A stretch of 32,455 nt of DNA from Bdellovibrionales bacterium (GCA_043739185.1 JAYUEN010000431.1:1-32455); one strand, 5' to 3'; counted from the stretch's first letter, positions 7,535-32,307 are shown. Program-made: numbers and translations. The notes: generated by a model from the sequence alone, not told the origin.

Positions 7535-7550
7535 TGCAACAATTCAGCCG
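7535..7550 (-). promoter_or_regulatory. Predicted sigma-54 promoter CGGCTGAATTGTTGCA for ymgE-like/OMP/sodB
   Basis: GG-N10-GC with TTGCA, 58 nt before ATG 7477. Confidence 0.7.
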
Positions 7551-7587
7551 TTAACAGCTCAAGACTCAACGCCTTTGAGCTAAATCC

Positions 7588-7839
7588 TTAAGGCGATTTG
7601 TCTCTACTTGGGGCATGTATAGCCCGACCAGCTGTTCTCATGCGAAATCGAGAGTGACTCTTTTGTGGCGGAGGAGCCGCTTCGGTAGTCTGATTGTCCC
7701 CGGCAACTACCACTCCCTGCGTAGAAAAAGAAACGCCGTCTAGGTCATAATGATCATCGACATCTCGTGAAGAGATTTTTTTTGAACTTAGATGATTGCG
7801 CCAACTCATAAACATTTTTTTGAAATCAACTCTGTTCAT
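7588..7839 (-). CDS. Small hypothetical hydrophilic protein
   Basis: ORF directly downstream of dps on the same strand. GAGGA RBS before ATG 7839. Confidence 0.55.
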   Translation of the reverse strand: MNRVDFKKMFMSWRNHLSSKKISSRDVDDHYDLDGVSFSTQGVVVAGDNQTTEAAPPPQKSHSRFRMRTAGRAIHAPSRDKSP

Positions 7840-7890
7840 CACTAAATTCCTCATTAAAACAAACAATTTTATTAAGCAAATTTCTTGAAA

Positions 7891-8373
7891 CTACTTTTTT
7901 GCTTGCAGATGGGCTTCGACAAACCACAAATATTTGTCTAAGCCCCTTGAGATTTCAGTTAAGATATCAGCTGAATCAGCATCGCTCACTTCAATGCAAG
8001 ATTGAATAGCCTTACGAACTTGTGCACCTGCGCCACTCAAGGTATCAGAAAGATATTCAATATGGGCATGCCCATCGCTGATAACCACGGGATATTCCTT
8101 TAGACATGATTTCTTTGTAACAAACTGTGCGGTTCCTTCGGCAATTCCACCAAGCTGTACAACTCTTTCGGCAAGCAGGTCAGTATACTCACCAAAACTC
8201 TGGTAAATTTGATCGAAGAGTTCATGAAGGGCAATAAAATTAGGACCTTTGACATTCCAATGAGCTTGTTTTGAATTCAGAACTCCATCTAAACAAGTTG
8301 CCAAACAAGCGTTGAGAAGCTCGATAACTGGCACGCGACTCGCAACCGGAATACTATTTTTAGTTTGATACAT
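7891..8373 (-). CDS. dps: DNA protection during starvation protein Dps
   Basis: HWNVKGPNFIALHELFD, DLLAERVVQLGG and DKYLWF. RBS AAGGAG. Confidence 0.96.
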   Translation of the reverse strand: MYQTKNSIPVASRVPVIELLNACLATCLDGVLNSKQAHWNVKGPNFIALHELFDQIYQSFGEYTDLLAERVVQLGGIAEGTAQFVTKKSCLKEYPVVISDGHAHIEYLSDTLSGAGAQVRKAIQSCIEVSDADSADILTEISRGLDKYLWFVEAHLQAKK

Positions 8374-8401
8374 TTTTTCTCCTTATTTCGAATACTGTTT
8401 C

Positions 8402-8629
8402 TTAAAATTGAGCTTGCTGGCGCATCCGACTGTCTCTGCGACTTGCTTGACATACGCGATTTACAAGTCGTGCAATTTCGTTATCAATTTCGCTTGTTGC
8501 GCGGTCTGCGAGGTCACCCTGACACTCGGGAATTCTCTCTTCAACTCGATGAGAAGTGTTCTCAAAGAAGCTTTGGTTCTTTTTAATTTCAAATGGCGAT
8601 CCGAGTTTTTTAAGTTTACTAATTTTCAT
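8402..8629 (-). CDS. Small hypothetical protein, first gene of the dps operon
   Basis: GGAAGGA RBS. Lies between a sigma-54 site and dps. Confidence 0.55.
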   Translation of the reverse strand: MKISKLKKLGSPFEIKKNQSFFENTSHRVEERIPECQGDLADRATSEIDNEIARLVNRVCQASRRDSRMRQQAQF

Positions 8630-8681
8630 AAATCCTTCCGATCTTGTTTACTTTAATTGAGATCTCTCAGGATTTTGTAAG

Positions 8682-8697
8682 AGCAAGTATTTAGCCA
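8682..8697 (-). promoter_or_regulatory. Predicted sigma-54 promoter TGGCTAAATACTTGCT for the dps operon
   Basis: TGGC-N7-TTGCT, 53 nt before ATG 8629. Confidence 0.78.
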
Positions 8698-8874
8698 TTT
8701 GAAAAAAAGCATTCAATTCGTCTGAATTGGGCCACTTAACTGATCCCAATGATTTTGGTGTCGTACCATTTGAGCCCGATTGTAGGAACTTTCGACCCAT
8801 TTGAAACAATACGAACCCCCCTGCATAAAATTGCGAAATGGCAGTTCAAGGCATTTCTTAAACTAAGAATAAAT

Positions 8875-8890
8875 GGGTACATTCGTTGCA
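8875..8890 (+). promoter_or_regulatory. Predicted sigma-54 promoter GGGTACATTCGTTGCA (divergent partner of the 8682 site)
   Basis: GG-N10-GC with TTGCA, 49 nt before ATG 8939. Confidence 0.68.
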
Positions 8891-8938
8891 CTCGATTCGC
8901 ATACTAGAGTCTCAATACTTTTAAAAAAGGAAAATTAT

Positions 8939-9502
8939 ATGCTCAGTTTATGTCTTAAAATAGCCTTGCTCATTTCTACAATTGGTTTTGGCCTCCCAGG
9001 CCTAGCTAAGGATGATATTGATACTTCCTCTTCGACTTCGCTCAGAAACCTACAGCCCAACTACTTAAGTTATGATCGGCTCGGTCTTGGAATCAAATGG
9101 GGTACTCTGACCGGAGTGAGTGCAAAGTATTGGATGGACGACTTTCAGGCCGTCGAAATCACCGCAGCTTTTGCGGATGCCAATACCGCAATCGGAGTAG
9201 ACTATCTTTGGAATTTTCGCGGAGCCCTTGCAAATTTGGGCAAATTCAAAGAAGTCGATAATTTTGTGCCTTTTGCCGGTGCGGGTTTACTTTCAAGCTT
9301 CGGAACAAGTGCATCTAATAGTCGACTCTTTAATCATGATACCGATAGTTTTGACCTAGCGGTGCGAGTACCTATCGGTATGGAATTTATTCCGACCACA
9401 GTACATATGGGGATTTTCGCAGAGATTGGGCTTGGTTTCGGATTTATTCCAAATTCGTATAGCTTTGCAACTGCCGACATCGGCGCCAGATATTACTTTT
9501 AA
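8939..9502 (+). CDS. Outer-membrane beta-barrel protein (DUF3996-like)
   Basis: Signal peptide from ATG 8939 (AAGGA RBS). GLGI..G..TGVSAKYW, VRVPIGMEF and C-terminal GARYYF beta-signal. Confidence 0.7.
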   Translation: MLSLCLKIALLISTIGFGLPGLAKDDIDTSSSTSLRNLQPNYLSYDRLGLGIKWGTLTGVSAKYWMDDFQAVEITAAFADANTAIGVDYLWNFRGALANLGKFKEVDNFVPFAGAGLLSSFGTSASNSRLFNHDTDSFDLAVRVPIGMEFIPTTVHMGIFAEIGLGFGFIPNSYSFATADIGARYYF

Positions 9503-9567: not shown

Positions 9568-10134
9568 ATGTTAACTAAAAAAGTATCTGTAATCGCCGGG
9601 AGCTTACGACGCGAATCCTATAGTAAAAAAATTGCGAAGCTACTTACAGAGATTGCGCCTCGTCCGCTGGAACTTCAAATCTTAAAAATCGAAAATCTTA
9701 GTTTCTATAATCAAGACCTTGATGAGACGCCTCCACTTGCGTGGACTGAATTTCGCAATCAAATTAGGAGCTCAGACGCAATTATTTTTGTTACTCCTGA
9801 ATACAATCGGTCTATACCTGGAGTTCTCAAGAACGCCTTAGATATTGCATCAAGACCTTATGGTCAAAACGCATTTGAAAAAAAGGCGGCAGGAGTCATT
9901 AGCATTTCAATCGGCGCCCTTGGTGGCTTTGGCGCAAATCATCACCTGAGGCAAATACTTGTTCCTCTCAATATGCCAACAATGCCGCAGCCTGAAGTCT
10001 ATTTGGGCGAGGCTAAGAAATACTTTAGTGACAGTGGTAGCTTCATAAGTGAACCGACGAGGGGCTTACTCATTAAATTTTTGAGTTCATTTAGTGATTG
10101 GATTGAAAGATCGAAAGTACAAATCTTAAGCTGA
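9568..10134 (+). CDS. NADPH-dependent FMN reductase (ChrR/YieF-like)
   Basis: GSLRRESYS, TPEYNRSIPGVLKNALD and GGFGANHHLRQ. RBS AAGGAG. Confidence 0.92.
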   Translation: MLTKKVSVIAGSLRRESYSKKIAKLLTEIAPRPLELQILKIENLSFYNQDLDETPPLAWTEFRNQIRSSDAIIFVTPEYNRSIPGVLKNALDIASRPYGQNAFEKKAAGVISISIGALGGFGANHHLRQILVPLNMPTMPQPEVYLGEAKKYFSDSGSFISEPTRGLLIKFLSSFSDWIERSKVQILS

Positions 10135-10275
10135 GAAATTATTCGTTGCAGCGGTCGGGCGAAAATTCCCAATTGGGCAAGGATGCCGTTGAGTTACTTA
10201 GCCAATAAAATCAGCATCAATAAAAATTTTGAATTAAAACAATTAGTTATTTTCATAAGATCGCAAAACTTGTGG

Positions 10276-10291
10276 TGGCATTGACATTGCT
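10276..10291 (+). promoter_or_regulatory. Predicted sigma-54 promoter TGGCATTGACATTGCT
   Basis: Near-consensus TGGCA-N6-TTGCT, 43-49 nt before ATG 10334/10340. IHF-like AAACAATTAGTTA at 10237-10249. Confidence 0.82.
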
Positions 10292-12198: not shown

Positions 12199-12425
12199 AA
12201 CTTCGTCATTCACTTGATGTGGGGCTCGCATCAGAATTGTAAAAAATGTTTTTATGTAAGCCCTAAAATTCAATTTAGCCGAATCTGCTTTCGATCAACA
12301 ATTTACACTCGGTCATTTTGCCCCATACTTTAAATTTCAATTCGGTTGGAGTCGAACCCAACCTTTAATTAATTCATATGTGATAACTAACGACTCAGCA
12401 AACGAATTGATCCTCATTTTTAAGT

Positions 12426-12441
12426 TGGCAGCTATATTGCT
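12426..12441 (+). promoter_or_regulatory. Predicted sigma-54 promoter TGGCAGCTATATTGCT for the glucan synthase
   Basis: Near-consensus TGGCA-N6-TTGCT, 62 nt before ATG 12503 and 97 nt before TTG 12538. Confidence 0.82.
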
Positions 12442-12537
12442 ATATCTCACACCTGTACGAGAAATTCTAACTTAAGCGCCAAGATAAGAAAAAGAGTAAA
12501 ACATGAAAATTCAAAGCACTCGCTTACGAATCGAAAG

Positions 12538-15500
12538 TTGATTTTGATAAATCAAAGCAACGAGAACGCAATTAAGGGTGAAATCTATAGCGTCGAGCGA
12601 CTCGAAGAGTTTGCAGTCTATCTCGCGGCCCAACTAGATGTCGGCGCCAAACCCAAAGTTGCGCATTCATTACTACCGAGAATGCGCGACAATGGTATTA
12701 AACTTTTAGAATCTTATCGAACTCTGACTGATGCCGTTCATAAAAAACAAAGTATTCCCCCGGCCGCTGAATGGTTAACTGATAATTTTCATATCATTGA
12801 AGACCAACTGCGGGAGATTCAAGAGGATCTACCTCCCGCATTTTACAATGAGCTTCCAAAAATTTCCTTGGGCGAATTGAGTGGGTATCCGCGAATTTAT
12901 GCAATCGCATTGGCACTCATTGCGCATACCGATAGCCAACTCGAACCGGACACGATACGAAGGTTTGTTCTGTCCTATCAAAAAGTATCAACTTTAAAGA
13001 TAGGTGAGCTTTGGGCGCTGGCCATTACACTTAGGCTAGTACTGGTTGAGAATTTACGCCGAATTGCCGTGCAAATGGTGGCCGATTATGAAAACACAAT
13101 TTTTGCAAATAACTATGTAGATCGTCTTATTGAATTGGTTGCGAACAAATCAAAATTTCAAAACTTGATCTTGAAGCTCCCGAAGTATTGGCGCAAATCG
13201 ATTCACAATGACTCTGCTGTGATGGCTCAATTTGCCAAACGCCTTCGCGACCAGGAGCCTGAGCTTTTTCCTGCTCTAGAAGCACTCGAAAAACATCTGG
13301 CAAAAGAGAACTCCTCGATTGAACATATCGTCCATCTTTCGCATCATATACAGGCCTCGAATCAAATAAGTGTAGCAAATATAATTACCAGTATGCGGCT
13401 TTTATCGAGCCTCAATTGGCGGGATTTCTTCGAAAGCCTGAGCATGGTCGATCGGGTTTTAGAGAAAGATCCTGTCTATTCGAAAATGGATTTTTTAACT
13501 CGCGATCGCTACCGGCATGTAATTGAAAAGCTGAGCAAAAAGACTCAAAGCTCAGAGATTGAGATCTCTGAAAAACTCATTCAAATTATCAGTGACGTTG
13601 AAGTCAAATCTCCTGAAGATTCTCGAAAATCTCATATCGGTTACTATTTGATTGGACAGGGAGCCAAAAAACTACATCTAGATTTGGCCTATCAAAACAG
13701 ACTTTTATATTTTGCTCAAGCTCACCCAAACCTCATTTATTTTGGACTAATGGGCATACTTCTCGGTTTTTTTTGCGCAGCACCTCTTGTTTATTCAGTA
13801 TTGCACGGGGCATCGCTTGCATTACTATTTGGAATAAGTTTATTGATACTCATTCCCTGCAGTGACCTTGCGCTTACTTTTTCGAACTTTATTTTAACAC
13901 ACGCAATTCGACCAAAGAATTTGCCCAAACTTGATTTCTCCTCTGGAATTCCCGAAACCGCACGAACCATGGTGGTCATACCTTGTATGCTCTCTAACCC
14001 CAAAGTGGTATTAGAGTTAGTTGAAAAAATTGAAATACACTTTCTTGGCAATTCGGATAACCAATTACTATTTGCTTTGTTAACAGATTTTACCGATGCT
14101 GACACCGAGATTTTTTCGACTGATGATGACTTGGTCCGACTCGCAACTGAAAGTCTTGAACTACTCAACCAAAAATACAAAGGAGCAAAGGCCAAGCGAT
14201 TCTTTCTTTTTCATAGACGACGCCAATGGAATGAATCCGAAAATGCTTGGATGGGATGGGAAAGAAAGCGTGGCAAAATTCACGAGTTCAACCGTCTTTT
14301 GCGTGGCAATAAAAACACCAGCTTTACTATGGTGACGGCCCCCAGAGAACTTCTTCAATCAGTTCGTTTTGTCATCACCCTAGATGCCGATACCCAGTTA
14401 CCAAGAGATACTGCGCGCAAGATGGTGGGCACAATTATGCATCCTCTCAATCAAGCGAAATTCGATCAGAATTTGGGCCGAGTGGTAGATGGCTACGGAG
14501 TACTTCAACCGCGTATCGGAATTTCTCTAGAAAGCTCGGGACGATCAGCTTTTGCCAAACTTTTTTCGGGCAATACCGGAATCGATCCTTATACCACCGC
14601 AGTCTCTGATGTTTACCAAGATCTTTATCACGAAGGCAGCTATACCGGCAAGGGGCTCTATGATGTCGATGCATTTGAAGCGGCACTCAATAATCGCATT
14701 CCAGAAAATTCGATTTTAAGTCATGATTTGTTCGAGGGGCTTTTTGCTCGAACTGCACTTCTCACCGATGTTGAACTCATAGATGATTATCCGCAATCTT
14801 ATCATAGCTATTTCACCAGGCAGCATCGATGGACTCGCGGGGATTGGCAAATTAGCTCTTGGATTCTGCCTTTTGTTCGCAATCAAAAAAATGCTTGGGT
14901 CCGCAATCGCCTTCCCTTGATTTCTCGCTGGAAGATCTTTGATAACTTAAGGCGAAGCTTCGTCTCCCTCGCACTTTTTCTTTGGCTTGTATTAGCTTGG
15001 TCGAGTCTTCCTGGCTCACCCCTGTTCTGGACCGCTTCTGCACTTTTTATCATTGTTTCACCAGGTTTATTTCACGCCATATATGAAAGTTTTTTATGCT
15101 TATTTAAACAAAACCAATCGCGTTTTTTACTTGCAAGATTCAATATCAAAACCAGTCTCTTGCAGTGCTTTTTACGAATTGTATTTCTCGCTCATCAGGC
15201 AATTATTCACTTAGACGCTCTTATTCGTGTTCTCTACCGAAAAAATATCTCGAAATTAAAATTGCTCGAATGGGCCCCTGCAGCCCATATGGAGAGTCAA
15301 AAATTCAGTTTAAATCTACCATTTTGGCAAAGCTGTTGGCCAACTGAAGGCGCCTTGCTTGCCTGTGCTTTGTTCACATTAATTGTAAAGCCCCCAAGGC
15401 AACTCATGCCCGCACTGATTTTATTGGCACTGTATTTATTGTGGTTCAGCCACCCAGCTGTTGCCTTTTGGATTAGTCGCAAATCAATCCGCAGAAAAGA

Positions 15501-21802: not shown

Positions 21803-21818
21803 TGCAAAGCACTCGCCA
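21803..21818 (-). promoter_or_regulatory. Predicted sigma-54 promoter TGGCGAGTGCTTTGCA with no obvious adjacent gene
   Basis: TGGC-N7-TTGCA, divergent from the 21942 site. Confidence 0.6.
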
Positions 21819-21941
21819 CAGCTCAATTGCATGAGCCGCGCTCCCATCAATTTCAATCAGGCACAATGACTCAAAGCCAAGAAAAAAAAAGGCCTTTTGC
21901 TACAAATAGCACTTTCACTTCTATTCAGCAGAGTGATGAGC

Positions 21942-21957
21942 TGGGCAGCTAATTGCA
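21942..21957 (+). promoter_or_regulatory. Predicted sigma-54 promoter TGGGCAGCTAATTGCA
   Basis: TGG-N10-GC with TTGCA, 73 nt before ATG 22030. The -24 half deviates from consensus (TGGG). Confidence 0.55.
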
Positions 21958-22029
21958 CTTTGATATTTTGAAATTTATCCGCCAGAAAATAAGTGATCCA
22001 AATTAGCACTGACCCATTAAGGAGAAAAA

Positions 22030-22689
22030 ATGAAAAAATCAAAACTCTCGGCAGCCTTCAATTCAAGTTTAATACTCGTTTCTCTATTCATGTTTGCATG
22101 CACCAAAGATACTGCTGCTGATATTGATGAGGAAAGCAAAAATAAAATCACCGCTAGTGGGAATCCGGCTTTGCAAAATGCCACTTATGCGGCTCCCTGT
22201 GGCACCTCGAATCTCGCTCATATAGGATCGATTCCTCTCTTAGCAAGTCAAACCTATGTCGAAATGGGAAGCCTAAATTTCAACAAACGCCAGGTTTATT
22301 TTACAGATGCCGATTGCAAAACTATGGCCTTTCAAATTCAAGAAAGAGGACGCATTCACGTCGCAGGCAAATCAGCCGTGGTTGCAAATGCACTCGACGA
22401 AGATTTTAATTATGAAAGCATAACTCTAATGGTTCATGACGAACTTGTTATGAATGCCTTCAATCAAGTTAGTTTATGCGGAATCAATAATTGGACCAAG
22501 GGCACCGAAAGAGATCTTGGGGTTCAAGCCTCTGTCGGTATTTGCCCCGGTCAAGTTTCTCACCGTAAAACAATCGAAATTGTACTTGTTGAAAACAATC
22601 AACTCTATTTTGGAGCCGACGATAATCCGGACAATGCCCACAAGCGACCTACACAAGTGAATCGCTCTAGACCATTTTCTAAAAAGTAG
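22030..22689 (+). CDS. Cys-containing hypothetical lipoprotein
   Basis: AAGGAG RBS, basic N-terminus, hydrophobic stretch, lipobox-like MFAC, four further Cys. Confidence 0.75.
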   Translation: MKKSKLSAAFNSSLILVSLFMFACTKDTAADIDEESKNKITASGNPALQNATYAAPCGTSNLAHIGSIPLLASQTYVEMGSLNFNKRQVYFTDADCKTMAFQIQERGRIHVAGKSAVVANALDEDFNYESITLMVHDELVMNAFNQVSLCGINNWTKGTERDLGVQASVGICPGQVSHRKTIEIVLVENNQLYFGADDNPDNAHKRPTQVNRSRPFSKK

Positions 22690-22702
22690 AAATGAGAGAA
22701 AA

Positions 22703-23071
22703 ATGAATTTGGAAATGGGATCAATTTCGAATAGAGCAAATCCAAAAGCGCATCGCTTATCCTATCAAGTTAAGCGTTGTGGATACCTCTTTACCTGGTT
22801 GTTAGTGAATATGACTTTGGCATCCTTGAGCTTTGCTTTGGCCAATGAAGGTAAACCTGAATCTAAGTTAAATAAAACAGTTGAAACCGGAAACAATTTT
22901 AAAAAAAATAGCAAAAAAGTAGCTCAAGGCACAAAAGAGTCTCGATGTGCCAAAGACGCAACAAAATGCCTTTCACAAAAATCCAAACGCCAAATGAGTG
23001 AAGGCCGAGTTGAACTTGACGAGAAAGCTACTGACCACCAGAACACTAAGTTACAAAGAAGAACCAACTAA
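22703..23071 (+). CDS. Small Lys-rich exported protein with C-x6-C
   Basis: Hydrophobic segment ending in FALA, followed by a highly charged K/E-rich domain. Start uncertain. Confidence 0.6.
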   Translation: MNLEMGSISNRANPKAHRLSYQVKRCGYLFTWLLVNMTLASLSFALANEGKPESKLNKTVETGNNFKKNSKKVAQGTKESRCAKDATKCLSQKSKRQMSEGRVELDEKATDHQNTKLQRRTN

Positions 23072-23169
23072 TATATAAGAAATCAAAAGCTGTTTTGCCT
23101 TAAAAAGCTTGGTTTAAACTAGACCAAAACTCTGTAGACATATCCGGAATAAGACGCAAACATTTTAAC

Positions 23170-24399
23170 TTGCGCAACTCCACTCCTATTTTATTGGTAA
23201 TATTTCTTTGCACTTACTTTTCTTCAAGTTCTGCCTTCGCAAAACTTTTCTGTGCACCATTCAAAGTTCATCTTTTCGCAAGTCTGCCCCCACCTCCGGT
23301 GATTATAATTCCCGAAATTTTGCCAAACAATTGGGAAAGTCAGATTCCGTTGCAAATTGGCCAATTTAAAACTCAAGAGGACTTTCCGAAGCTTTACCAA
23401 GCTTGGTTGATTCGTCATCCAAATGAACTCTTAGATAAAGAGCGTTTCGCATGGCTGAATTGCCTGGCATACTATGTGAAGATAGATACCAATAAAAACG
23501 GAATTCCCGACTGGACGGCAATTGTTGACAATGAACCCGCTCGCGTTTTATTTCCTCAAGATCCCGATTTAGATGGCGTTGGCAGCCCCAAGGTTTTAGA
23601 TCCTTCTCCGGACTATGCCAATATTAAATCGAGTAATTCAAAACTTAAAATTCCAAATCACCTTAAATTGAATATAAGAAATAATCCTGCGGCCTATAGA
23701 GTGCAAAAAAAGCTTTTCTCAGAATTTGGCATAATCGCCATTGATCACACCGATACTCATTCTTCGGTAGTACTATTAGAACTTTTAAAGCTACTCGAAT
23801 CTGCCTTTCCAAAAGATCTCGTCTCAAAGATGAAGGGCCTGCGCTATATTTATGCCTTCTTAAGTCATGACCCATTCAATAATATTGCTTCATATCACAG
23901 AGAGGCGAATGCCATTAGCATTGGCGGCAAGCACTCGTATGCAGAGCACCGCTTGTCGCCACAAGAAAGAGTTGATTTAGTTGCAGCCCTTGCCCACGAA
24001 ATTGCACATGCGTATTTATTTGAAAATTTAACAGCATTGAAACTCGCACAATTGGCAGAAAAATTTGGCGGTTGGAGTGATTTGCAAACTTCGGATATTA
24101 CGAACTTTTATTCACAGATATTTTTCACACCAGCGCCGCAGCAAAAGCTAGAATTTAATAATAAGTACAAGAGAGCAAATATTATATCGGAGTACGCTCT
24201 TAGCAATATTCACGAGTGGTTTGCCGATTCCTTTGCTGCCGTCATATTAATTAATTTAGGCTCAGCTTCGTATTTTGGCACAATCGACTGGCAAAGGCTC
24301 CTAGTGAAGTCGCCACAAAAACATACAGAATACTGGAGCGATTATAATCAAGTTCCAATCGGATTTCGACTTTGGCTAAACGCCAGGCTATTTAATTAA
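23170..24399 (+). CDS. Secreted zinc metallopeptidase-like protein (HExxH; ATLF/lethal-factor-like third ligand)
   Basis: Signal peptide ending AFA. LAHEIAHAY and SEYALSNIHEWFADSF. DTNKNGIPD and DPDLDG Ca-binding-type loops. Confidence 0.7.
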   Translation: MRNSTPILLVIFLCTYFSSSSAFAKLFCAPFKVHLFASLPPPPVIIIPEILPNNWESQIPLQIGQFKTQEDFPKLYQAWLIRHPNELLDKERFAWLNCLAYYVKIDTNKNGIPDWTAIVDNEPARVLFPQDPDLDGVGSPKVLDPSPDYANIKSSNSKLKIPNHLKLNIRNNPAAYRVQKKLFSEFGIIAIDHTDTHSSVVLLELLKLLESAFPKDLVSKMKGLRYIYAFLSHDPFNNIASYHREANAISIGGKHSYAEHRLSPQERVDLVAALAHEIAHAYLFENLTALKLAQLAEKFGGWSDLQTSDITNFYSQIFFTPAPQQKLEFNNKYKRANIISEYALSNIHEWFADSFAAVILINLGSASYFGTIDWQRLLVKSPQKHTEYWSDYNQVPIGFRLWLNARLFN

Positions 24400-24437
24400 G
24401 GACAGAAAAAGAGACCGCGACGAATCTTTTTCCGTCC
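24400..24437. terminator. Hairpin between convergent genes
   Basis: GGACAGAAAAAGA...TCTTTTTCCGTCC imperfect inverted repeat filling the gap between two stop codons. Confidence 0.5.
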
Positions 24438-24445
24438 AATGAAAT

Positions 24446-25015
24446 CTATTTTTTTCTAACGACAACTACTACAGCCATAGACTCAGCTCCATCCCGAGCA
24501 ATGGTATTGAAGTCTTCTCTTGCCATCGGTAGACTGGCATCCTTACTAAAAACCGATTTGATTTCTGCATCGTCAGTCCTAAAGGTCTTTGCCAACCAAT
24601 TTGAGGCATCCGCCATATTATAGGCCTTAATACTCGGTGAATTCATATAGGCTTTAAGAAATTCTTTGACCTTCTCGATCCTAGCGTTTGCCAAGTCCTG
24701 ATCTGATTTTGGCAAGCTCTTTCCGGTTCTGGGAAATGCCTTGTCGGACCAAACCGCCAATTCAATTTTATCAATATCATCAGCACCTACATTATTAACA
24801 ACCTCTTGAAGCTTGGTCTGCTCTCCAGCCCTCAATTGCGAGCTCCCAATTGCAAAAGCAACTACGACGCTGCGACCATAGTGGTGACTATCGACCTCAG
24901 CATCAGAATTTGCGGCACTCCTATTCATTGGTACATCATGCGCACAAGCGGCAGATAAGATACAAAATGAAAATGCCCAAAGACACAATGGTAACTTTTT
25001 ACTAATGTAATTCAC
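24446..25015 (-). CDS. Lipoprotein with a degenerate OmpA-C-like fold
   Basis: GTG start after AAGGAG, lipobox SAAC. FAIGSSQL...WSD...DLANARIEKVKEFL resembles an OmpA-C domain. Confidence 0.6.
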   Translation of the reverse strand: MNYISKKLPLCLWAFSFCILSAACAHDVPMNRSAANSDAEVDSHHYGRSVVVAFAIGSSQLRAGEQTKLQEVVNNVGADDIDKIELAVWSDKAFPRTGKSLPKSDQDLANARIEKVKEFLKAYMNSPSIKAYNMADASNWLAKTFRTDDAEIKSVFSKDASLPMAREDFNTIARDGAESMAVVVVVRKK

Positions 25016-25099
25016 AGTAATCTCCTTGTTTTTTAGTTTCATATTTAATTTCTATACCAGGAAAATTCCTGATATTTCATGAGAACGAAATTTCGGTCT

Positions 25100-25130
25100 G
25101 TACGAGCGGCACAATGAATGCCGCTCGTAC
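25100..25130. other. Perfect 12-bp hairpin GTACGAGCGGCA-N7-TGCCGCTCGTAC
   Basis: Seen directly, just downstream of the SYLF gene. No U-tract on the transcribed (minus) strand. Confidence 0.7.
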
Positions 25131-25144
25131 TTTGATCAAATGTC

Positions 25145-25834
25145 TCAATGTGCATAGTTTGAAAGTGCTTCATTATATGGACGAAGCATTGCGGGCATAA
25201 GAATATAATCCGTATTGTGCTCCAACAGATCTGTAGCGCTTAGTTTCGATCCATAAACCATAATATTTGTCTTGGTATCAACGCTGATGATCGAGCCATC
25301 TAGGGTGAGACCAGCAAATAAACCACGGCTTCTTGAATAACTATAGATTTCGCTACTGAGAGTTAAATCAGTACTCGCCTGAGCTTCCCTGCCCACAGGC
25401 CCTGCGGCAATTGAAACATCACCACCGAGAGTAAATTTGCCCTTTGACATCTTTACTGCAGCTTCTGATTTGACAAAAACTAAAACCAAGTCAACGGACT
25501 CTACCCCAATCTGAAATCCCCAGCTACCGCCAGCGATTGTTATGAAAGAAGGTTGACTCCATCGCCCACTTACTCGACACGAAACCAATCCCTGCCCATA
25601 TTGCCCGCCAAAAATGAATCCGGCCTTAATTACATTAGGAATGGTGGCAATACATGTCGCTTTATTCATTAGGTTGTGCGGAATTCCTCCATCTGAAATT
25701 TCAGAAATTTCCCGAAGCACACTTGCCGAGACATTTACTTTGTCTACTAGATCTGGCATGGTCTCTGCAGTCGCAAATGAAGAAATTGTCATCATGACCG
25801 CGCCGGTCAAAAGTGTTTTAAAAGTATTTCTCAT
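25145..25834 (-). CDS. Ysc84/SYLF lipid-binding domain exported protein
   Basis: Signal peptide. KAGFIFGGQYGQG, WSQPSF, GFQIG, AAGPVGR and YSRSRGLFAG. Confidence 0.92.
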   Translation of the reverse strand: MRNTFKTLLTGAVMMTISSFATAETMPDLVDKVNVSASVLREISEISDGGIPHNLMNKATCIATIPNVIKAGFIFGGQYGQGLVSCRVSGRWSQPSFITIAGGSWGFQIGVESVDLVLVFVKSEAAVKMSKGKFTLGGDVSIAAGPVGREAQASTDLTLSSEIYSYSRSRGLFAGLTLDGSIISVDTKTNIMVYGSKLSATDLLEHNTDYILMPAMLRPYNEALSNYAH

Positions 25835-25874
25835 TTTGTACCTCTATTCGATTTGTTAAAACCATTCGCATAAT

Positions 25875-26075
25875 TTAATTGCGAGTTTCTGATCGGTTTT
25901 GTTCTTTGGGCTTACGCTCCTGAGACTGAGACATATCTTTCTCATTAGTTTTTTGTTTGTTGGGATCATCTGCTTTTTTTGCATTAGGCGAAAATGAAGG
26001 CGCGACCTTCTTGCCCCCGTTTTCCTGATGATTAGCAGACTTCTTCTCTTCTTTTTGAAACTTTTTGTTATCCAT
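25875..26075 (-). CDS. Small highly hydrophilic (hydrophilin-like) protein
   Basis: AAAGGAG RBS. 66 aa, rich in K/E/N/Q/S and almost devoid of hydrophobic residues. Confidence 0.75.
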   Translation of the reverse strand: MDNKKFQKEEKKSANHQENGGKKVAPSFSPNAKKADDPNKQKTNEKDMSQSQERKPKEQNRSETRN

Positions 26076-26129
26076 TTGAATTCTCCTTTGTAATTTTTTT
26101 TAACTCTTTACCTGTCGCATTTCATTGAT

Positions 26130-26145
26130 AGCGAAATCCTTGCCA
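26130..26145 (-). promoter_or_regulatory. Predicted sigma-54 promoter TGGCAAGGATTTCGCT
   Basis: TGGCA, GG-N10-GC, 55 nt before ATG 26075. Confidence 0.72.
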
Positions 26146-26286
26146 AGTTTTGGCGACGAGGAAATCAACCAAACTAGCTACTTACAGAGTTGCGCAATTT
26201 TTTGAAACGACTTTTTGACCCAAACATGATCTGCCAGTTCATTTCCTGCCCATCGCTCAAAGGGCTTCAACCAAAATATTATTTTT

Positions 26287-26302
26287 TGGTCAAGACTTTG
26301 CA
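26287..26302 (+). promoter_or_regulatory. Predicted sigma-54 promoter TGGTCAAGACTTTGCA (divergent partner of the 26130 site)
   Basis: TGG-N10-GC with TTGCA, 49 nt before ATG 26351. Confidence 0.68.
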
Positions 26303-26350
26303 GTAAAGTTCCTTGTCTCAAACATTAATCTAATTCGAGCCTTTAATTTT

Positions 26351-27142
26351 ATGAATTCAAAATCTTCACTACATTCATTTTTCAAACTTAGGAAATGGCA
26401 AATTCTGCTTTCGACAGTTTTTTTTTCAATATCACAATTGCAGGCGAGCGAAAGTCTTTCAAGAGATGGCCTCAATATCTACCGCCACAACGAAAATTAT
26501 TTTATTACAGGCAAGGAAGAAACCAAGATTCAATTGAGCTTTAAAATGGAGCTAATTGCTGATGCAGGCTTTTACGTTGCCTATACTCAATTGATGTTTT
26601 GGGATCTTGGCATTGGAACGGCACATTTTTCAGATGTAAACTACAATCCTGAATTCTTTTATCGCCTAAGGCTGAGCAATTCGATTTTAAAGGAAATTGA
26701 CTTCTGCCCGCTAGACCACAAATCAGACGGTCAAACCGCCGAAAACGCCCGCAGCTGGAACCGTACTTATATAAATTTAAGAAGTGACTATGAGTTTTTT
26801 CATTTGAATTTTCGAACGGAAACGAAAATGTATTACTTCTATGAATACGACAATACGAATCCTGAAATCTACCGTAAGCTTGGGCTTATCGAATTTGGGT
26901 TTACGATTGAAAATCTTTTGTTAGGTCGTTTTAGTCAAGATGAACTCAATATTAAAATCGTGCCAGGAGGGGTTTTTAGTATGTCTGAAAATGAAGGTCA
27001 TCAGGAATTGAACTTTAAATTTCGTTTGCAAATACCCCGACTCAATCCATCAATTTATTTTCAAATATACAATGGAACCGACGAAAAGCTGATAAAATAC
27101 AACGAAACTGCAACCAGTTATCGAATCGGCTTAGCTCTTTAA
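26351..27142 (+). CDS. pldA: Outer-membrane phospholipase A (OMPLA)
   Basis: KIQLSFK, YTQLMFW, NYNPEFFY, HKSDG...RSWNR and C-terminal strand IGLAL. Confidence 0.85.
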   Translation: MNSKSSLHSFFKLRKWQILLSTVFFSISQLQASESLSRDGLNIYRHNENYFITGKEETKIQLSFKMELIADAGFYVAYTQLMFWDLGIGTAHFSDVNYNPEFFYRLRLSNSILKEIDFCPLDHKSDGQTAENARSWNRTYINLRSDYEFFHLNFRTETKMYYFYEYDNTNPEIYRKLGLIEFGFTIENLLLGRFSQDELNIKIVPGGVFSMSENEGHQELNFKFRLQIPRLNPSIYFQIYNGTDEKLIKYNETATSYRIGLAL

Positions 27143-27152
27143 TTGAACAGAT

Positions 27153-28598
27153 CTAAATTCCCAATTCTTCTAGTCTAGGTGAATTGATTTCTTTTTCTTT
27201 TCGATAAAGTGTTTTTCGGTCAATTCCTAATAGCTTTGCCGCCAAGTCTTTTTTACCGGCAGTTCTCTTAAGAATATACTCAATATATTTCATCTCGAGC
27301 TGTTGAATAGTAATACAGGAGCTAAAAATATCATTTGGAAGCTCATGAACTAGTTCTTTCTTGTCTGACGCTACTTCAATGTCACAGACTTCAATCTGAT
27401 TTGTATTACAAAATACCATTGCTCGTTCAATGGTATTTTCAAGCTCTCTGATATTGCCCGGCCAGTCTTGCAAGCTCAAATGCTCAATTGCATGCGCACT
27501 CAAGCTCTTTACCAAGGGATTCAAACTAGAATATTTCTCTACAAAATGTTCTGCCAAAAGAGAAATATCATTTTTGCGGCTCTTTAAGGTTGGAACCTCA
27601 ATATAAACCACATTGATTCGATAATAAAGATCTTCTCGAAATCGTCCGGCCTTGCATTCTACTTTAAGGTCGCGGTGACTTGCCGCAATGATTCGCACAT
27701 CGCTTTGCTTTGTAATATTCTCGCCAACTAATTTATACTCTCGCTCTTGAATAAACCTCAAAAGTTTACCTTGTAGAGCCAAAGGCATATCACCAATTTC
27801 ATCTAAAAAAAGTGTGCCCCCCTCAGCGGTTTCAACCAGACCTTTTCGCCTTGAAATGGCCCCGGTGAATGCACCTTTCGCATGTCCAAAGAGCTCACTC
27901 TCAAGAAGATTTTCTGGAATTGCAGTACAATTGAGTGCAACAAAGGGTTTGCGCGCCCTAGGCCCACTCTTATGTATCGCCTGAGCAATGAGTTCTTTCC
28001 CGGTTCCGCTCTGGCCAAACAACAAAACATTGACTCGATTGCGGGCAACTTTCTTGATCATAGACAAGACACTTTGCATCTTCGGATCATTTCCGATCAA
28101 CGAAAGTGCATGAGATGAAAGCTTTGCGGTGTCCAATATCTCTAAGCCTTCGCGCTCTAGAATTCGATCCTTAAGCAGCCCCTGCATAATCGATTTGAGC
28201 TCTAAAATATTAAGAGGTTTTATAATGTAATGATCTGCACCTATGCGCATCGATTCAACCGCAGTTTCAATACTCGCAAACGCCGACATAATAATAATGA
28301 GTGTATCGCTTAACTTTCGTAGTTCTTTAGTGAATTCAATGCCACTCAGCCCAGGCATTATTAAGTCAGAAAGGATGATATCGTAACCGGAGGTACCTGT
28401 GTCCAAACAATTTTGTTTTATTTTATCTAATGCGTCTTTCGCAGTTAAAAAGTGATCGAGTAAATAATTTTCAGCAAGAAGTTTATACTTCAAAAACTCA
28501 AAAATTTCTAAACTATCGTCTATTACTAAGATCTTTGTTTTGGGTGTTTTAATTATTTCACCAGCCACACCCGTCGCACTGTTCGCATTGCTCTTCAA
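27153..28598 (-). CDS. Sigma-54-dependent NtrC-family response regulator (REC-AAA+-Fis HTH)
   Basis: REC (IDD, SDLIMP, KP), Walker [40 protein letters not shown] and [12 protein letters not shown]. Confidence 0.96.
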
Positions 28599-28917
28599 TG
28601 TCCACCATTTTTTCTTTTGAAAATAAATATTTATTGATTACCTTGCGGAAATGTATTTACACCCTAGACGATTGTTCGAAAACTAGCAATGCCTTTCGCA
28701 ATTTAACTTTCAAACCACATGAGAAGAAAAGGAAATTTAGCAAATTTGAGTCGAAGATAGGTTTTGCACCATATGACACTTTTTGATTTATAATTTTTTC
28801 ACATAGCTATCTTAACACAATCTGATTAATCAACGAGCTTAAATAACAAATCCTTTGCCCCGTTCACAGCTCGAGCGCGGAGCAAACTCAACAGACAAGC
28901 ACTCAGTATCCCGCACC

Positions 28918-28949
28918 AAAGGGCCCATGCAAACGATTGCCCTGGACCC
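28918..28949 (-). terminator. Probable intrinsic terminator of the 29581-28974 operon
   Basis: Minus strand GGGTCCAGGGCAA-TCGT-TTGCATGGGCCC followed by TTT. Confidence 0.45.
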
Positions 28950-28973
28950 ACTGTTTTCTTAGTTACCTCTCTA

Positions 28974-29246
28974 CTAATGATGAGCTCTGGTCGTAGTTTC
29001 ACTTTTTTGGTGATTAAAATAAAAATATGCGCCAGCAGCTATCACTGAAATACCCGCACTGACCATCGCAATTGTTCTCCAGTTTTCCCGAGAAAACTTT
29101 TTGATGGCTGGGAGCGCCTTGCTCACTTCTGCAACCAATTCTTGAGCCTTCTCACCACTGGTTTTACTTCCATTGAGGCTTGCTGTGTCCAGACCCTTTT
29201 TCCCACGGCTTGGTTCTTCTCTATAACGATATTCTGTTTTGTCCAT
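28974..29246 (-). CDS. Small C-terminally anchored membrane protein (ElaB/YqjD/DUF883-like architecture)
   Basis: Charged N-terminus, FSRENW, then a single C-terminal TM. AAAGG RBS. Confidence 0.6.
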   Translation of the reverse strand: MDKTEYRYREEPSRGKKGLDTASLNGSKTSGEKAQELVAEVSKALPAIKKFSRENWRTIAMVSAGISVIAAGAYFYFNHQKSETTTRAHH

Positions 29247-29302
29247 AAAATCGACCTTTCATTTTAATTGGGTAATTTCTCACTTTCACTTCAATCTTCT
29301 TT

Positions 29303-29581
29303 TTAATTTCCTATACTATGAGAGCTTTCAATCACGGAATCTGTTTGCCGAAGCACAATACTCAATGCGAAAGCAACAAGTGGAGGCGTCAGACCTCGCC
29401 AGTTCATCCTCAGATAATAGGTAAGATCTATTAATTCAGATAGACTGGTATCAACAATTTCACGCTCTTCGCTAATAAAATTCATAATTTTGTCTTGCAG
29501 GACTTTTGGATGTTTTAATATTCCCATCAGAACTTCATGAGAGTCAGAACCTTGAAGATCCTTTGAATTGTTCACAAGCAA
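29303..29581 (-). CDS. Small hypothetical protein with a hydrophobic C-terminal segment
   Basis: TTG start after AGAAAGGA. LRMNW followed by a hydrophobic stretch echoes the neighbouring gene. Confidence 0.55.
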   Translation of the reverse strand: MLVNNSKDLQGSDSHEVLMGILKHPKVLQDKIMNFISEEREIVDTSLSELIDLTYYLRMNWRGLTPPLVAFALSIVLRQTDSVIESSHSIGN

Positions 29582-29602
29582 GTCCTTTCTAATCGAGTTT
29601 CA

Positions 29603-29641
29603 CTGTCTCTGTCTCTGTCTCTGTCTCTGTCTCTGTCTCTG
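29603..29641. repeat. Hexanucleotide microsatellite (CTGTCT)x6.5
   Basis: Perfect 39-bp repeat seen directly. Confidence 0.97.
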
Positions 29642-29644
29642 ACC

Positions 29645-29660
29645 TGCAAGCTTGCGGCCA
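29645..29660 (-). promoter_or_regulatory. Predicted sigma-54 promoter TGGCCGCAAGCTTGCA
   Basis: TGGC-N7-TTGCA, 64 nt before TTG 29581. Confidence 0.78.
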
Positions 29661-29985
29661 AATATTTGTCGCGAAGGCTAACACCCTAAGAATAGGCCCT
29701 AAAAATTATTTCTAATGATCTTGTTATCCATATTCCGACCGCTCAACGCATTTAAATGGGGCAGAAAGAAATTCCTAAATGAAACTTATCGCCCCATTTA
29801 TTTGAGTCCTGATTTTAAGAAAATGATTTCATTCCTGCGTTCAATTGAGAAATATTTTTGATCAAACTACTTTATAAGATTTATTTCGCTTTCAATTAAT
29901 TTTGTTTGGACGGGGCAAGTTTTCTCACTCCTGCATGAAATGGGGAATCATGACCGTCCGAACACTGATCTGGCAGCTTTGGGGA

Positions 29986-30001
29986 TGGCCGCAAATCTGC
30001 A
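29986..30001 (+). promoter_or_regulatory. Predicted sigma-54 promoter TGGCCGCAAATCTGCA for the ompA-DUF1328-csbD operon
   Basis: TGGC, GG-N10-GC, 45 nt before ATG 30046. Shares TGGCCGCAA with its divergent partner. Confidence 0.75.
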
Positions 30002-30045
30002 TTAGTATTTGGGACGATTAGTAAATATTTTCAAAAGGATTCAAA

Positions 30046-31473
30046 ATGATTCAAACCAGTTTCGCAAAATTGTTCACTCTGATGATTACCTTATTAGGAT
30101 TAGCAGCCTGTGGGCACTCGCCAACAATTCAAGAGTATTCAGTTGGCGCAAGCCCGAGTGAAGAAATTCAGAAGTTAGACGTCGCCATGACCAGTGCTTA
30201 TCGTGATCAGGTCGATATGCTCGCTCCAAACAGTTTTGAAAATGCCAAAGTCTCCCTCACCGAAGCCAAATCGCAATTAGATAAGCAAAAAGATCCAGCA
30301 AAGACATTGCATACAATTGCCACGGCAAATTCCTACTTGAAACAAGCAATCGCGGCTTCGCAAGTTGCACATGCAAATATTGAGGAAGTTATCTCTGCGA
30401 GAAAACAAGCCATTGCCGCTGGCGCAACCAAGCACTTTGACAAAGAATTTATGGCAACCGATCGACAATTGCGCGAAGTCACTTCCGACCTCGAAAAGAA
30501 TGAAGTTGCTTCCGCTGAAAAAAATCGTACCAGACTTCAAAATGAATATCTCAATCTCGAACTACTCTCGATTAAGACTGAAAGTTTACATAGTGCAGGT
30601 GAAACTATCGAACAGGCTAAAACTGAAGGAGCCAAATCACTCGCACCACGAAGCCTTGCAATTGCAGAAAAGAAGTATAGAGATACCGATGCATTTATAA
30701 CTGCAAATCGTCACGACGCACAAGTGAATGTCAGGTCAGAAGAAAGCAAAGCACTTGCCGTTCATCTTTTGAAAATTACCAGAGCCTCAAAGCTTGATAA
30801 AAAAACTTCGTCTGAAGAGTTGGCGCTGAGAAATGAGAATGACCAAAACTTAGCTTCAGAAAAGGACGCGGAGCTTCAAGCCAAAGAAACTGTATTGAAA
30901 AATCAAGGCGAAGAACTCACGACCAAGGATATGCAACTCGCAAAAAGCGAGAATGTGTTACAAAATAAGAATGCAGAACTGACTGGTGCCGCCTTAGCCT
31001 TGAATGAATCCAATAATAAAGCCGACGCCGAAAAAGAATTTAATCAGAAGTACGAAACTGCCCGTTCTGAATTTAGTGAACAAGAAGCCGAAGTATATAA
31101 ACAAGGCGATGCACTCGTAATTCGTCTAAAAGCCCTTGAGTTTCCCAACTCTAAAGCCAATTTAAAAGCTGCTAATTTCTCGCTATTGGCAAAAGTAGAG
31201 AAAGTAATTAAAAGCTTTGGCCCAAGTTCGGTCGTGATCGAAGGTCATACTGATTCTGTAGGAGGAAAAGTGGTAAACGAAAAGCTCTCCGTTCAGCGAG
31301 CACAGGCTATTCGAGAATATTTTATAGCCAATTCGGTAACTGACTCAGGTAAAATCAGCGCTATAGGTTATGACTATCAAAAGCCCATTGCGAGCAATAA
31401 GACACCTAGTGGCCGTGCTCAAAATCGTCGAGTCGATATTCGCATATTGCCTGATAAGACGACTTCACTTTAG
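30046..31473 (+). CDS. OmpA-family lipoprotein with a long helical/coiled-coil stalk
   Basis: Lipobox LAAC. IEGHTDSVG, NEKLSVQRA and GRAQNRRVDI peptidoglycan-binding motifs. Confidence 0.92.
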   Translation: MIQTSFAKLFTLMITLLGLAACGHSPTIQEYSVGASPSEEIQKLDVAMTSAYRDQVDMLAPNSFENAKVSLTEAKSQLDKQKDPAKTLHTIATANSYLKQAIAASQVAHANIEEVISARKQAIAAGATKHFDKEFMATDRQLREVTSDLEKNEVASAEKNRTRLQNEYLNLELLSIKTESLHSAGETIEQAKTEGAKSLAPRSLAIAEKKYRDTDAFITANRHDAQVNVRSEESKALAVHLLKITRASKLDKKTSSEELALRNENDQNLASEKDAELQAKETVLKNQGEELTTKDMQLAKSENVLQNKNAELTGAALALNESNNKADAEKEFNQKYETARSEFSEQEAEVYKQGDALVIRLKALEFPNSKANLKAANFSLLAKVEKVIKSFGPSSVVIEGHTDSVGGKVVNEKLSVQRAQAIREYFIANSVTDSGKISAIGYDYQKPIASNKTPSGRAQNRRVDIRILPDKTTSL

Positions 31474-31534
31474 TGCTTTTCACTGAATATTAACTTTATT
31501 TCGCAACGAATTTTTTAACAATAGGAGGTTTAGG

Positions 31535-31972
31535 ATGTTACGCGCAGCTATTGGATTTTTTATAATTGGACTTGTGGCTTTTGCATTAGGAGCTGGAGGT
31601 GTTGGGGGCCTGTCTATTGAAATAGGTCGAACTCTTCTCTTTGTGTTTATCGCTTTCGCAGTTTTGAGTTTCTTGGTCTCACTCTTTACGGGAAAAAAGC
31701 CACAAATAATTTGGATTCCTATTTTTCTCTTTGGCCTAACCTTCGCGCCCGGCACATCGAATGCCAACGCTGAAGATTCACCGAAAACTCAATTTCAAAA
31801 TGATATCGGCGACGCAAAAACAGATACAAAAGTTCACGCGCGAAAGCTGAAACGTTATGTCAGAAATAAAACGGGCAAGCAAAGTAGGGTCAAGGATTCA
31901 AAGGATTTGATTTACGATGCAAGCGATAAAACACAAAATTCGATTGAAAAAGTTGAACGCAAAGCTAAATAG
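31535..31972 (+). CDS. DUF1328 (UPF0391) membrane protein fused to a signal-peptide-like segment and a Lys/Asp-rich tail
   Basis: The first ~55 aa (MLRAAIGFFIIGLVAFALG..G..IGRTLLFVF) match DUF1328. AGGAGG RBS. Confidence 0.75.
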   Translation: MLRAAIGFFIIGLVAFALGAGGVGGLSIEIGRTLLFVFIAFAVLSFLVSLFTGKKPQIIWIPIFLFGLTFAPGTSNANAEDSPKTQFQNDIGDAKTDTKVHARKLKRYVRNKTGKQSRVKDSKDLIYDASDKTQNSIEKVERKAK

Positions 31973-32004
31973 ATTTTAACAACGATCAATAAGGAGAAAG
32001 AATT

Positions 32005-32259
32005 ATGACAATCAATGAAAATACCACAAATGGTAAATGGCTTGAAATTAAAGGCAATATTCAAAAGGCCTGGGGAAATCTCACCGACAACGAATTAGAG
32101 CAATCCAAGGGCGATATCAAAGCAATAGGCGGCTTAATTCAGCAACGATACGGAGAGGTTCAAGAAAGCTACGGCAAAAAACTTTCAGCGATTTTTCAAG
32201 ACTTCAAAGTAGAGAAAGATAAAAAGCTTGAGTCTATTAAATCTTCTCTTAAGTCTTAG
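32005..32259 (+). CDS. csbD: CsbD/YjbJ family general stress protein
   Basis: GKWLEIKGNIQKAWGNLTDNEL...G.IQQRYG. AAGGAG RBS. Confidence 0.93.
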   Translation: MTINENTTNGKWLEIKGNIQKAWGNLTDNELEQSKGDIKAIGGLIQQRYGEVQESYGKKLSAIFQDFKVEKDKKLESIKSSLKS

Positions 32260-32291
32260 AAACTGGGCCCTTAGACTGTAAAGGCTTAAAA

Positions 32292-32307
32292 TGGCCTGGG
32301 CTTTGCT
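32292..32307 (+). promoter_or_regulatory. Possible sigma-54 promoter TGGCCTGGGCTTTGCT pointing out of the window
   Basis: TGGC-N7-TTGCT. The target is not visible and the site overlaps the terminator. Confidence 0.45.

Follow-up and report, generated by a model that had tools for sequence, protein, structure and literature searches.

Twelve predicted sigma-54 promoters on a Bdellovibrionales contig and the general-stress and envelope-protection regulon they probably serve

What is controlled by a dozen sigma-54 (RpoN)-type promoters packed into a single contig of a Bdellovibrionales bacterium? The stretch of DNA analysed here, hereafter the window, is the whole of contig C431 (GCA_043739185.1, JAYUEN010000431.1:1-32455; 32,455 nucleotides), for which an initial annotation had reported twelve GG-N10-GC sites shortly ahead of start codons. 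We consider it probable that these sites are the promoters of a sigma-54-dependent general-stress and envelope-protection regulon. Sequence analysis bears out the promoters and how they are conserved, the set of genes, the family of the activator and the enhancer motif with its position; we infer that the activator binds this motif, that it is fed by a histidine phosphotransfer (Hpt) protein and kinases, and that the regulon is induced by many stresses or by starvation. The genome (4.85 Mb, 540 contigs, 97.65% complete) probably belongs to the Bdellovibrionales, and the host group is probably predatory. Judged by its sequence, the window DNA is native to this lineage. Its GC content is 41.5%, vs 41.8% for the genome, its tetranucleotide profile is median-like (rank 44 of 78), and G003, a genome of the same genus, holds orthologous DNA with 70-79% identity to the window.

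All twelve sites are present on the strand originally given, with the first G of the GG at 7549(-), 8696(-), 8876(+), 10277(+), 12427(+), 21817(-), 21943(+), 26144(-), 26288(+), 29659(-), 29987(+) and 32293(+), by which they are named below. The distances to start codons reproduce when measured from the -12 end, and the positions first quoted are the low end of a 16-mer. An extended match had been described for most sites, which holds for TTGCW (10/12) and for TGGC (8/12) taken separately, but the two occur together in 6/12 only. The intergenic placement and orientation were also borne out, as 11 sites point to a gene and the twelfth (32293) to the contig end. For scoring, a position weight matrix was seeded with a sigma-54 consensus and refined on the upstream regions of the rest of the genome, excluding C431, with gene starts and upstream regions taken from a simple in-house gene caller. 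Refinement yielded the motif TGGCAY-N5-TTGCW, and about 14% of sites have GA at -12. The 3,815 bp of intergenic window DNA contain 12 sites scoring ≥8.5, compared with a mean of 0.95 and a maximum of 5 in 300 Markov simulations; they are exactly the twelve already reported, with no others. The coding DNA of the window holds 13 such sites in 28,620 bp. The bare 4-base core is common, as had been cautioned, with 20 occurrences in window intergenic DNA vs 10.7 expected.

Genome-wide controls point in the same direction. The correct spacer gave 154 upstream matches, compared with 24-34 at spacers altered by 1 or 2 bases in either direction, and matches peak 40-90 nt ahead of start codons. At score 10, a site was found in 222 of 2,746 upstream regions vs 27 in shuffles, and the wrong-orientation control gave 122 forward vs 15 reverse sites across 1,578 non-divergent regions; therefore, the roughly 200 predicted genomic promoters appear to be real. 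Even against this background the window is enriched: of its 22 genes with an upstream gap, 9 carry a site at score 10 (Fisher p 3e-5), and no contig ranks above C431. Given the chance, orientation and spacer controls, the conservation described below, an intact rpoN in the genome and a local activator, the reading of the twelve sites, as a set, as predicted sigma-54-type promoters is well supported. Sigma-70 promoter and terminator scans of 21000-32455 stayed at chance level. At the edge of contig C354 (1-91) lie the final 30 codons of another rpoN copy (83% identical), which is either a second gene or contamination.

The twelve sites and the genes they head are as follows.

7536..7549, minus strand: score 11.2; YmgE (transglycosylase-associated, 7477-7205; Pfam) and a beta-barrel outer-membrane protein (7208-6543)
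8683..8696, minus strand: score 14.4; a 75-aa open reading frame (ORF), Dps (8373-7891) and an 83-aa ORF
8876..8889, plus strand: score 12.2; a beta-barrel-like protein (8939-9502) and an NADPH-dependent FMN reductase (9568-10134)
10277..10290, plus strand: score 18.2; a 212-aa exported protein and a transglutaminase-elicitor-like protein; candidate enhancer at 10156-10172
12427..12440, plus strand: score 17.1; a 12-codon upstream ORF (12503-12541) and a GH94/glucoamylase-domain gene (12544-21354); candidate enhancer at 12309-12325
21804..21817, minus strand: score 10.7; a conserved non-coding stretch of about 140 nt (21650-21792), then a 66-aa ORF (21532-21332)
21943..21956, plus strand: score 8.9, the weakest; 219-aa lipoprotein-like, 122-aa and 409-aa ORFs
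26131..26144, minus strand: score 10.0; a 66-aa ORF, a Ysc84/SYLF protein (25834-25145) and a 198-aa protein
26288..26301, plus strand: score 12.7; outer-membrane phospholipase A (26351-27142)
29646..29659, minus strand: score 10.8; 92-aa and 90-aa small ORFs, with a 6-bp repeat in the leader
29987..30000, plus strand: score 11.8; an OmpA-domain lipoprotein (30046-31473), a DUF1328 fusion (31535-31972) and CsbD (32005-32259)
32293..32306, plus strand: score 17.7; contig end, with the target gene outside the window

General-stress marker genes (Dps, CsbD, DUF1328 and YmgE, by Pfam and NCBIfam) thus sit in operons headed by sigma-54 sites, together with FMN reductase, the GH94 protein, Ysc84, phospholipase A, the OmpA-domain lipoprotein and beta-barrels. 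The window Dps scores above its NCBIfam cut-off, while CsbD is above the Pfam and below the NCBIfam cut-off; csbD is described as a direct EcfG general-stress target in Sphingopyxis (available part of PMC7083833). About ten ORFs among the targets matched no Pfam or NCBIfam family. Orthologous transcription units in three genomes of the same genus keep their sites despite rearranged gene order, and sites 8696, 8876, 12427, 21817 and 29987 align with sites in G003. At 8696, the GG and TTGCT surroundings are identical base for base in G003, and in G001 and G002 Dps follows a small ORF with a sigma-54 site. The target orthologues of 8876 retain the site in G001, G002 and G003; this site falls within a longer ORF from ATG 8873, and the start that bears a ribosome-binding site and is conserved in G003 is 8939. 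Upstream of the G002 orthologue of the 10277 target there is a site (15.4) and an enhancer match, while 12427 is conserved in G003 and present in G002. Site 29987 and the gene order OmpA-DUF1328-CsbD are both conserved in G003, where the orthologue of the 90-aa ORF of the 29659 operon has its own sigma-54 site. Sites also precede a small ORF and Ysc84 in G001 and G002, and on contig C316 a YmgE paralogue is preceded by a site (15.8) with a strong enhancer pair. Conservation is not uniform: site 26288 is missing ahead of the G003 phospholipase A orthologue, site 32293 is not conserved in the aligned G003 region, and 21943 has no enhancer match and no equivalent in the G003 locus, where the lipoprotein gene is missing.

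Two sites had initially been left without a clear gene. Site 21817 is conserved in G003 and points across the conserved stretch to the 66-aa ORF, so that it no longer lacks a target; for 32293, the window contains no target gene, but the contig ends 162 nt away and the gene may therefore be cut off. The stretch 21650-21792 (minus strand), with 75% identity to G003, would be either a long leader or a lineage-specific RNA. A small RNA was considered here and is not supported, since there was no Rfam match, no unusual fold (z-score -0.03) and occurrence at length in only 1 of 30 family genomes. At 12427, the site stood but the reported distance of 62 nt did not carry over to the main gene, as it had used ATG 12503, which is out of frame with GH94; the main frame aligns at TTG 12544. 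The upstream ORF, with its own ATG, stops 2 nt ahead of this TTG start of the 2,936-aa GH94 gene, presumably of the cyclic glucan synthase type, and in G003 a similar 14-codon ORF overlaps the same start. Translational coupling or leader control of GH94 is possible. Between site 29659 and its first gene lies a perfect 6-bp repeat (29603-29641; 6.5 copies), which could vary the leader length, and the DUF1328 protein has an extra C-terminal part of about 85 aa, as in G003, while most relatives are of a 60-aa form.

Does this gene set recur beyond the genus? Among 151 genomes of the order, csbD was found in 102 and DUF1328 in 104. In 20-kb loci centred on csbD (20 genomes), 40 of 269 genes had a site, vs 14 of 238 at control loci from those genomes and about 2 by shuffling. 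A scan of 125 selected proteins from these loci identified as neighbours DUF1328, DUF883, BON, ferritin/Dps, Hpt, single receivers, hybrid kinases, OmpA and an activator with receiver (REC), AAA+ and helix-turn-helix (HTH) domains, the last in 7 of the 20 loci; the family of the 198-aa protein of the 26144 operon also occurs in this conserved module. Another 40 DUF1328 loci gave 75 of 423 genes with a site; it stood directly ahead of DUF1328 in 23 loci, while DUF1328 was called without a site in 12 and was itself not called in 5. In the usual layout the activator faces away from genes for DUF1328, a glycine-zipper protein and a beta-barrel. With one module activator as query and 7 candidates scored per genome, a search matched at least 62 of 201 phylum genomes at E ≤ 1e-125 and missed the window's own genome. 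Among the matches listed, 30 loci picked by activator similarity alone all encode an [IV]DRKTLY helix, with csbD, DUF1328 or DUF883 within 1.5 kb in 19 and Hpt in 16. The argument that sites occur only where the activator occurs was dropped, given the 7 candidates per genome and the finding that G070, which had no match, holds a shortened member. This 318-aa module-clade activator (L309:5345-6301) adjoins a DUF883 gene with a sigma-54 site.

The window encodes a candidate activator of the same kind.

27153..28598, minus strand: REC-AAA+-HTH enhancer-binding protein, candidate activator (Pfam)

Its receiver aspartate, Walker A and B motifs, GAFTGA loop and GIDRKTLY-family helix are all intact, and among the matches listed it falls below every named-family NCBIfam cut-off. 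Among the listed activators of the genome, the GIDRKTLY helix was seen only in this protein and in a paralogue on contig C94, with a close variant on C9. In a FastTree phylogeny of 91 proteins, from which one mis-translated outgroup, one long branch and two duplicates had been left out, the window activator groups with its G003 orthologue and the C94 group (support 100), within a 52-member clade (99) that contains 43 module proteins (100). Both paralogues lie in sigma-54-rich patches of their own. On C94 the neighbours are a hybrid kinase, Hpt and a receiver that has its own site; on C9 they are CBS proteins and a PAS kinase. In G003, Hpt and a receiver adjoin the OmpA-DUF1328-CsbD operon. A search of named genomes with the activator yielded no more than generic NtrC-family proteins (36-45% identity), and none of those 80 loci matched CsbD, DUF1328, DUF883 or Hpt profiles built on Bdellovibrionales, a weak control as the profiles are lineage-specific.

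Enhancer-binding proteins act from upstream sites, and a motif search of 77 module promoters identified a palindrome, best described as a core of 15 bp whose centre is A/T-rich, located 40-100 bp upstream of the GG. Its form is G-(T/G)-(G/T)-(G/C)-(A/C), five A/T-rich bases and the inverted repeat; where a second site occurs, its distance from the first is mostly 19-24 or about 31 bp. In cross-validation, held-out promoters scoring ≥7 numbered 31 of 40 and 26 of 33 at 35-110 bp, vs 1 and 3 at 125-200 bp, and in genomes outside the order the enhancer was found near the promoter in 10 of 13 cases and far from it in 0 of 13. In the window, 10 of 12 promoters score ≥4, compared with 448 of 1,615 upstream regions without sigma-54 sites (p 3e-4). 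The matches are clear at 8696/8876 and 29987, modest at 7549, 10277 and 12427, and weak or absent elsewhere; the clearest are these.

8762..8797, no strand: predicted tandem palindromic enhancer, pair score 15.0, with centres 73/92 and 105/86 bp from the GGs of 8696/8876
29911..29927, no strand: single enhancer-like palindrome, score 9.9, 67 bp upstream of site 29987

A pair score of ≥12 was reached in 3 of 600 controls. The tandem is conserved in G003, where it stands between the 75-aa-ORF promoter and the GH94 promoter, and a similar copy lies ahead of the beta-barrel orthologue there. The earlier suggestion that four divergent pairs share enhancers can be kept in part. Sharing by 8696/8876 is supported, since the conserved tandem lies between the two promoters, and a low-scoring pair (26216-26252) makes a weak case for 26144/26288; no site was found for 21817/21943, and the one good site at 29659/29987 is close to 29987 only. 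A de novo search on the genome's own sigma-54 promoters returned a shifted palindrome, AAATTG-N3-CAATTT, probably the same element read from another centre. Sites matching an integration host factor consensus were found at 0 of the 12 window and 0 of the 77 module promoters.

Taken together, a working model can be outlined. RpoN-RNA polymerase would sit closed at each -24/-12 site, and a phosphorylated GIDRKTLY-family activator (27153-28598 and/or the C94 and C9 paralogues) would bind the 15-bp palindromes 35-110 bp upstream, often paired about 19-24 or 31 bp apart, and open the promoter through ATP hydrolysis. The signal probably reaches the activator through hybrid kinases and the free Hpt protein, a link suggested by gene neighbourhood, and the regulon would be switched on under stress or starvation. 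On a wider scale, we give about even chances to a stress architecture specific to Bdellovibrionota, in which hybrid kinases, free Hpt and a GIDRKTLY activator drive sigma-54-dependent CsbD, Dps, DUF1328 and BON genes via the palindromic enhancer and, in much of the phylum, take the place of RpoS, SigB and EcfG; the window would then be a genus-specific expanded version with a paralogous activator.

Several observations weigh against the stress-regulon reading. The contig-level enrichment (binomial p 4e-4) is borderline once corrected for 130 site-bearing contigs. Window enhancer matches are mostly weak (≥6 in 4/12, ≥8 in 1/12), a pair score of 10 is reached by 8696/8876 only, and the exact consensus pattern has 0 matches in the window. 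The window activator belongs to a genus-specific branch adjacent to the module clade of 43 members, in a tree that does not fix the order of four subclades, and with 22 strong enhancer-binding proteins encoded in the genome, others may act at these promoters. About half of the window targets are exported proteins whose function is not known, and the sampled genomes are related, so that counts are not independent. In the order, sites precede none of the best 30 DUF1328 genes by Pfam score (28 of which are of a different N-terminal type), 1 of the best 30 ferritin/Dps genes and 8 of the best 30 csbD genes; as these best matches mostly lack sites, the module wiring must be regarded as common, not universal. 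A second DUF1328 type, in other genomes (L192-L219), has no -24/-12 site, and many of its genes have a TGTGA-like palindrome of 15-20 bp upstream, at about 100-125 nt from the start (log-likelihood 115 vs 56 for a mononucleotide shuffle; 26 sequences). This may reflect use of a related site independently of sigma-54.

The alternatives differ in how much of this they explain. It is extremely improbable that the matches are due to chance: about one site would be expected in the window's intergenic DNA, and a single weak one such as 21943 may be spurious, but twelve were reached in 0 of 300 simulations and the sites are conserved in orthologues, so that chance is rejected for the set. Real promoters could instead form a dense patch of exported genes in a broad envelope or secretome network with many activators, rather than one regulon, an account that we regard as unlikely. 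The approximately 200 sites across the genome favour it, as do signal-peptide-like N termini (by a crude rule) in 124 of 230 sigma-54 genes vs 632 of 2,540 others, and annotated targets that include proteases, nucleases, phospholipase D, a secretin and a TonB receptor (91 proteins, 20 regions). The available part of PMC3162934 likewise argues that sigma-54 governs the bacterial exterior. The module enhancer is only modestly in excess at the genome's other sigma-54 promoters (41/185 vs 226/1,615), which fits such a network; the window promoters, however, outscore those others for it (p 0.011), and the linkage of activator, DUF1328, csbD and Hpt recurs across families and orders.

More specific programmes fare less well. 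We think it quite improbable that the window is an oxygen or redox regulon like NmpRSTU of Myxococcus, whose NmpR sites (GCGCA-N5-TGCGC) share the 5+5+5 geometry and pairing, whose activator is fed by a phosphorelay, and whose targets include CBS and Usp proteins (available part of PMC11841059). Here, the C9 paralogue adjoins CBS proteins and a PAS kinase, one Usp gene has a sigma-54 site, and Dps, superoxide dismutase (SOD) and FMN reductase are encoded in the window; but the genome has no protoglobin domain, among the window genes Pfam identified none of respiratory, CBS or Usp type, and NmpR-type matches there are at chance (8 vs 10.25 expected), with none upstream of the 12 sites. A life-cycle programme, covering growth inside prey, exit and prey-independent growth as a counterpart of the FliA attack-phase regulon, seems very unlikely. 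In B. bacteriovorus, according to the available part of PMC3627812, FliA accounts for 92 of 140 attack-phase promoters, growth-phase starts are unmapped, and expression of rpoN spans both phases (169 and 270 RPKM, reads per kilobase per million; Table S1); by eye, unscored, a -24/-12-like sequence is seen in 1 of the 140 (Bd2462; Table S2). Many sigma-54 targets genome-wide in our dataset are secreted hydrolases, which would suit such a programme. Against this, the conserved core (CsbD, DUF1328, DUF883, BON and Dps-type) consists of general-stress genes in other bacteria, small-genome members of the order are often without csbD and DUF1328, and in several complete genomes DUF1328 is retained but no site precedes it; these losses argue against an essential phase switch. 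The general-stress and envelope-protection regulon remains the reading we prefer.

Elsewhere in the window, one further feature may touch the system.

147..5647, plus strand: CheB-CheR-PAS-GAF-HisKA-HATPase-REC hybrid kinase and a free CheB (Pfam), with no intergenic -24/-12 site upstream

It is possible that this kinase is the sensor for the activator. None of the SOD, hybrid kinase and activator genes in the window has a good upstream site. A -24/-12-like match (score 11.5) occurs at 5016 inside the hybrid kinase gene, 47 nt ahead of the CheB start, and intergenic GG sites with a non-GC -12 box lie on the minus strand at 6414-6427 (score 7.2), ahead of SOD, and at 28846-28859 (score 10.3), 261 nt ahead of the activator.

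The proposed regulon bears on how predatory bacteria without RpoS survive starvation between prey, and is relevant to the shelf life and persistence of predators as biocontrol agents. For work on cultured members of the phylum, the analysis names an activator family and its candidate targets and predicts a binding site; more broadly, it supports sigma-54 as a further route to a general stress programme. Literature searches, in a collection with few subscription papers, found no account for Bdellovibrionota of an RpoN regulon or of general stress run by sigma-54. For Ralstonia rpoN2, the available part of PMC4676750 reports no phenotype and does not contain the word 'stress'.

How does the proposed system compare with those already known? 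The switch mechanism itself is textbook. With the NtrC-family systems NtrB/NtrC, AtoS/AtoC and ZraS/ZraR it shares a REC-AAA+-HTH protein with GAFTGA, -24/-12 promoters and, as predicted, paired palindromic enhancers, and the best NCBIfam matches of the window activator are ntrC, AtoC and ZraR, all below cut-offs (e.g. 401 vs 559 bits for ntrC). Unlike in those systems, the targets here are general-stress and envelope genes, and the partners are Hpt and hybrid kinases rather than a simple paired kinase. RpoS and SigB regulons include targets of the same type, such as CsbD, Dps, YmgE, DUF1328, DUF883, BON and envelope lipoproteins. This likeness extends to the EcfG-NepR-PhyR response (available part of PMC7083833), but the -24/-12 promoters here need an ATPase activator, and RpoS, SigB and NepR were not found. 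For RpoS, 0 of 61 genomes of the order exceeded the cut-off of TIGR02394, a model built on proteobacterial RpoS. In the window's genome, no SigB/F/G-type sigma factor was above cut-off (best 135 vs 234 bits; partner-switching proteins were not searched), and NepR had 0 matches at 97.65% completeness, with five small sigma-70-family proteins unclassified and PhyR not searched. Only three large sigma-70-family proteins (619, 409 and 269 aa) are encoded. The sigma-factor set of the genome resembles that given for B. bacteriovorus (available parts of PMC3464611 and PMC11209729), one basis for the assignment to Bdellovibrionales.

In Myxococcus xanthus NmpRSTU, a further system for comparison, the NmpU kinase has a protoglobin domain. 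The available part of PMC11841059 describes NmpU as haem-binding. NmpRSTU resembles the predicted system in its phosphorelay to an NtrC-like activator, paired 5+5+5 palindromes, several sigma-54 operons and stress-type targets. Motif, domain and targets set the two apart: the half-site differs, no protoglobin kinase was found here, and the oxygen-use genes of NmpRSTU stand against CsbD, DUF1328, Dps, YmgE and OmpA; the word Hpt is absent from the main text of that paper. The FliA attack-phase regulon of B. bacteriovorus is alike in that one alternative sigma factor serves a large, dispersed gene set, but it relies on a sigma-28 promoter with no enhancer, and RpoN is unmentioned in the main text (PMC3627812). 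The predicted system combines NtrC-like working with RpoS-, SigB- and EcfG-type targets, while the sigma factors that define those regulons place it outside them.

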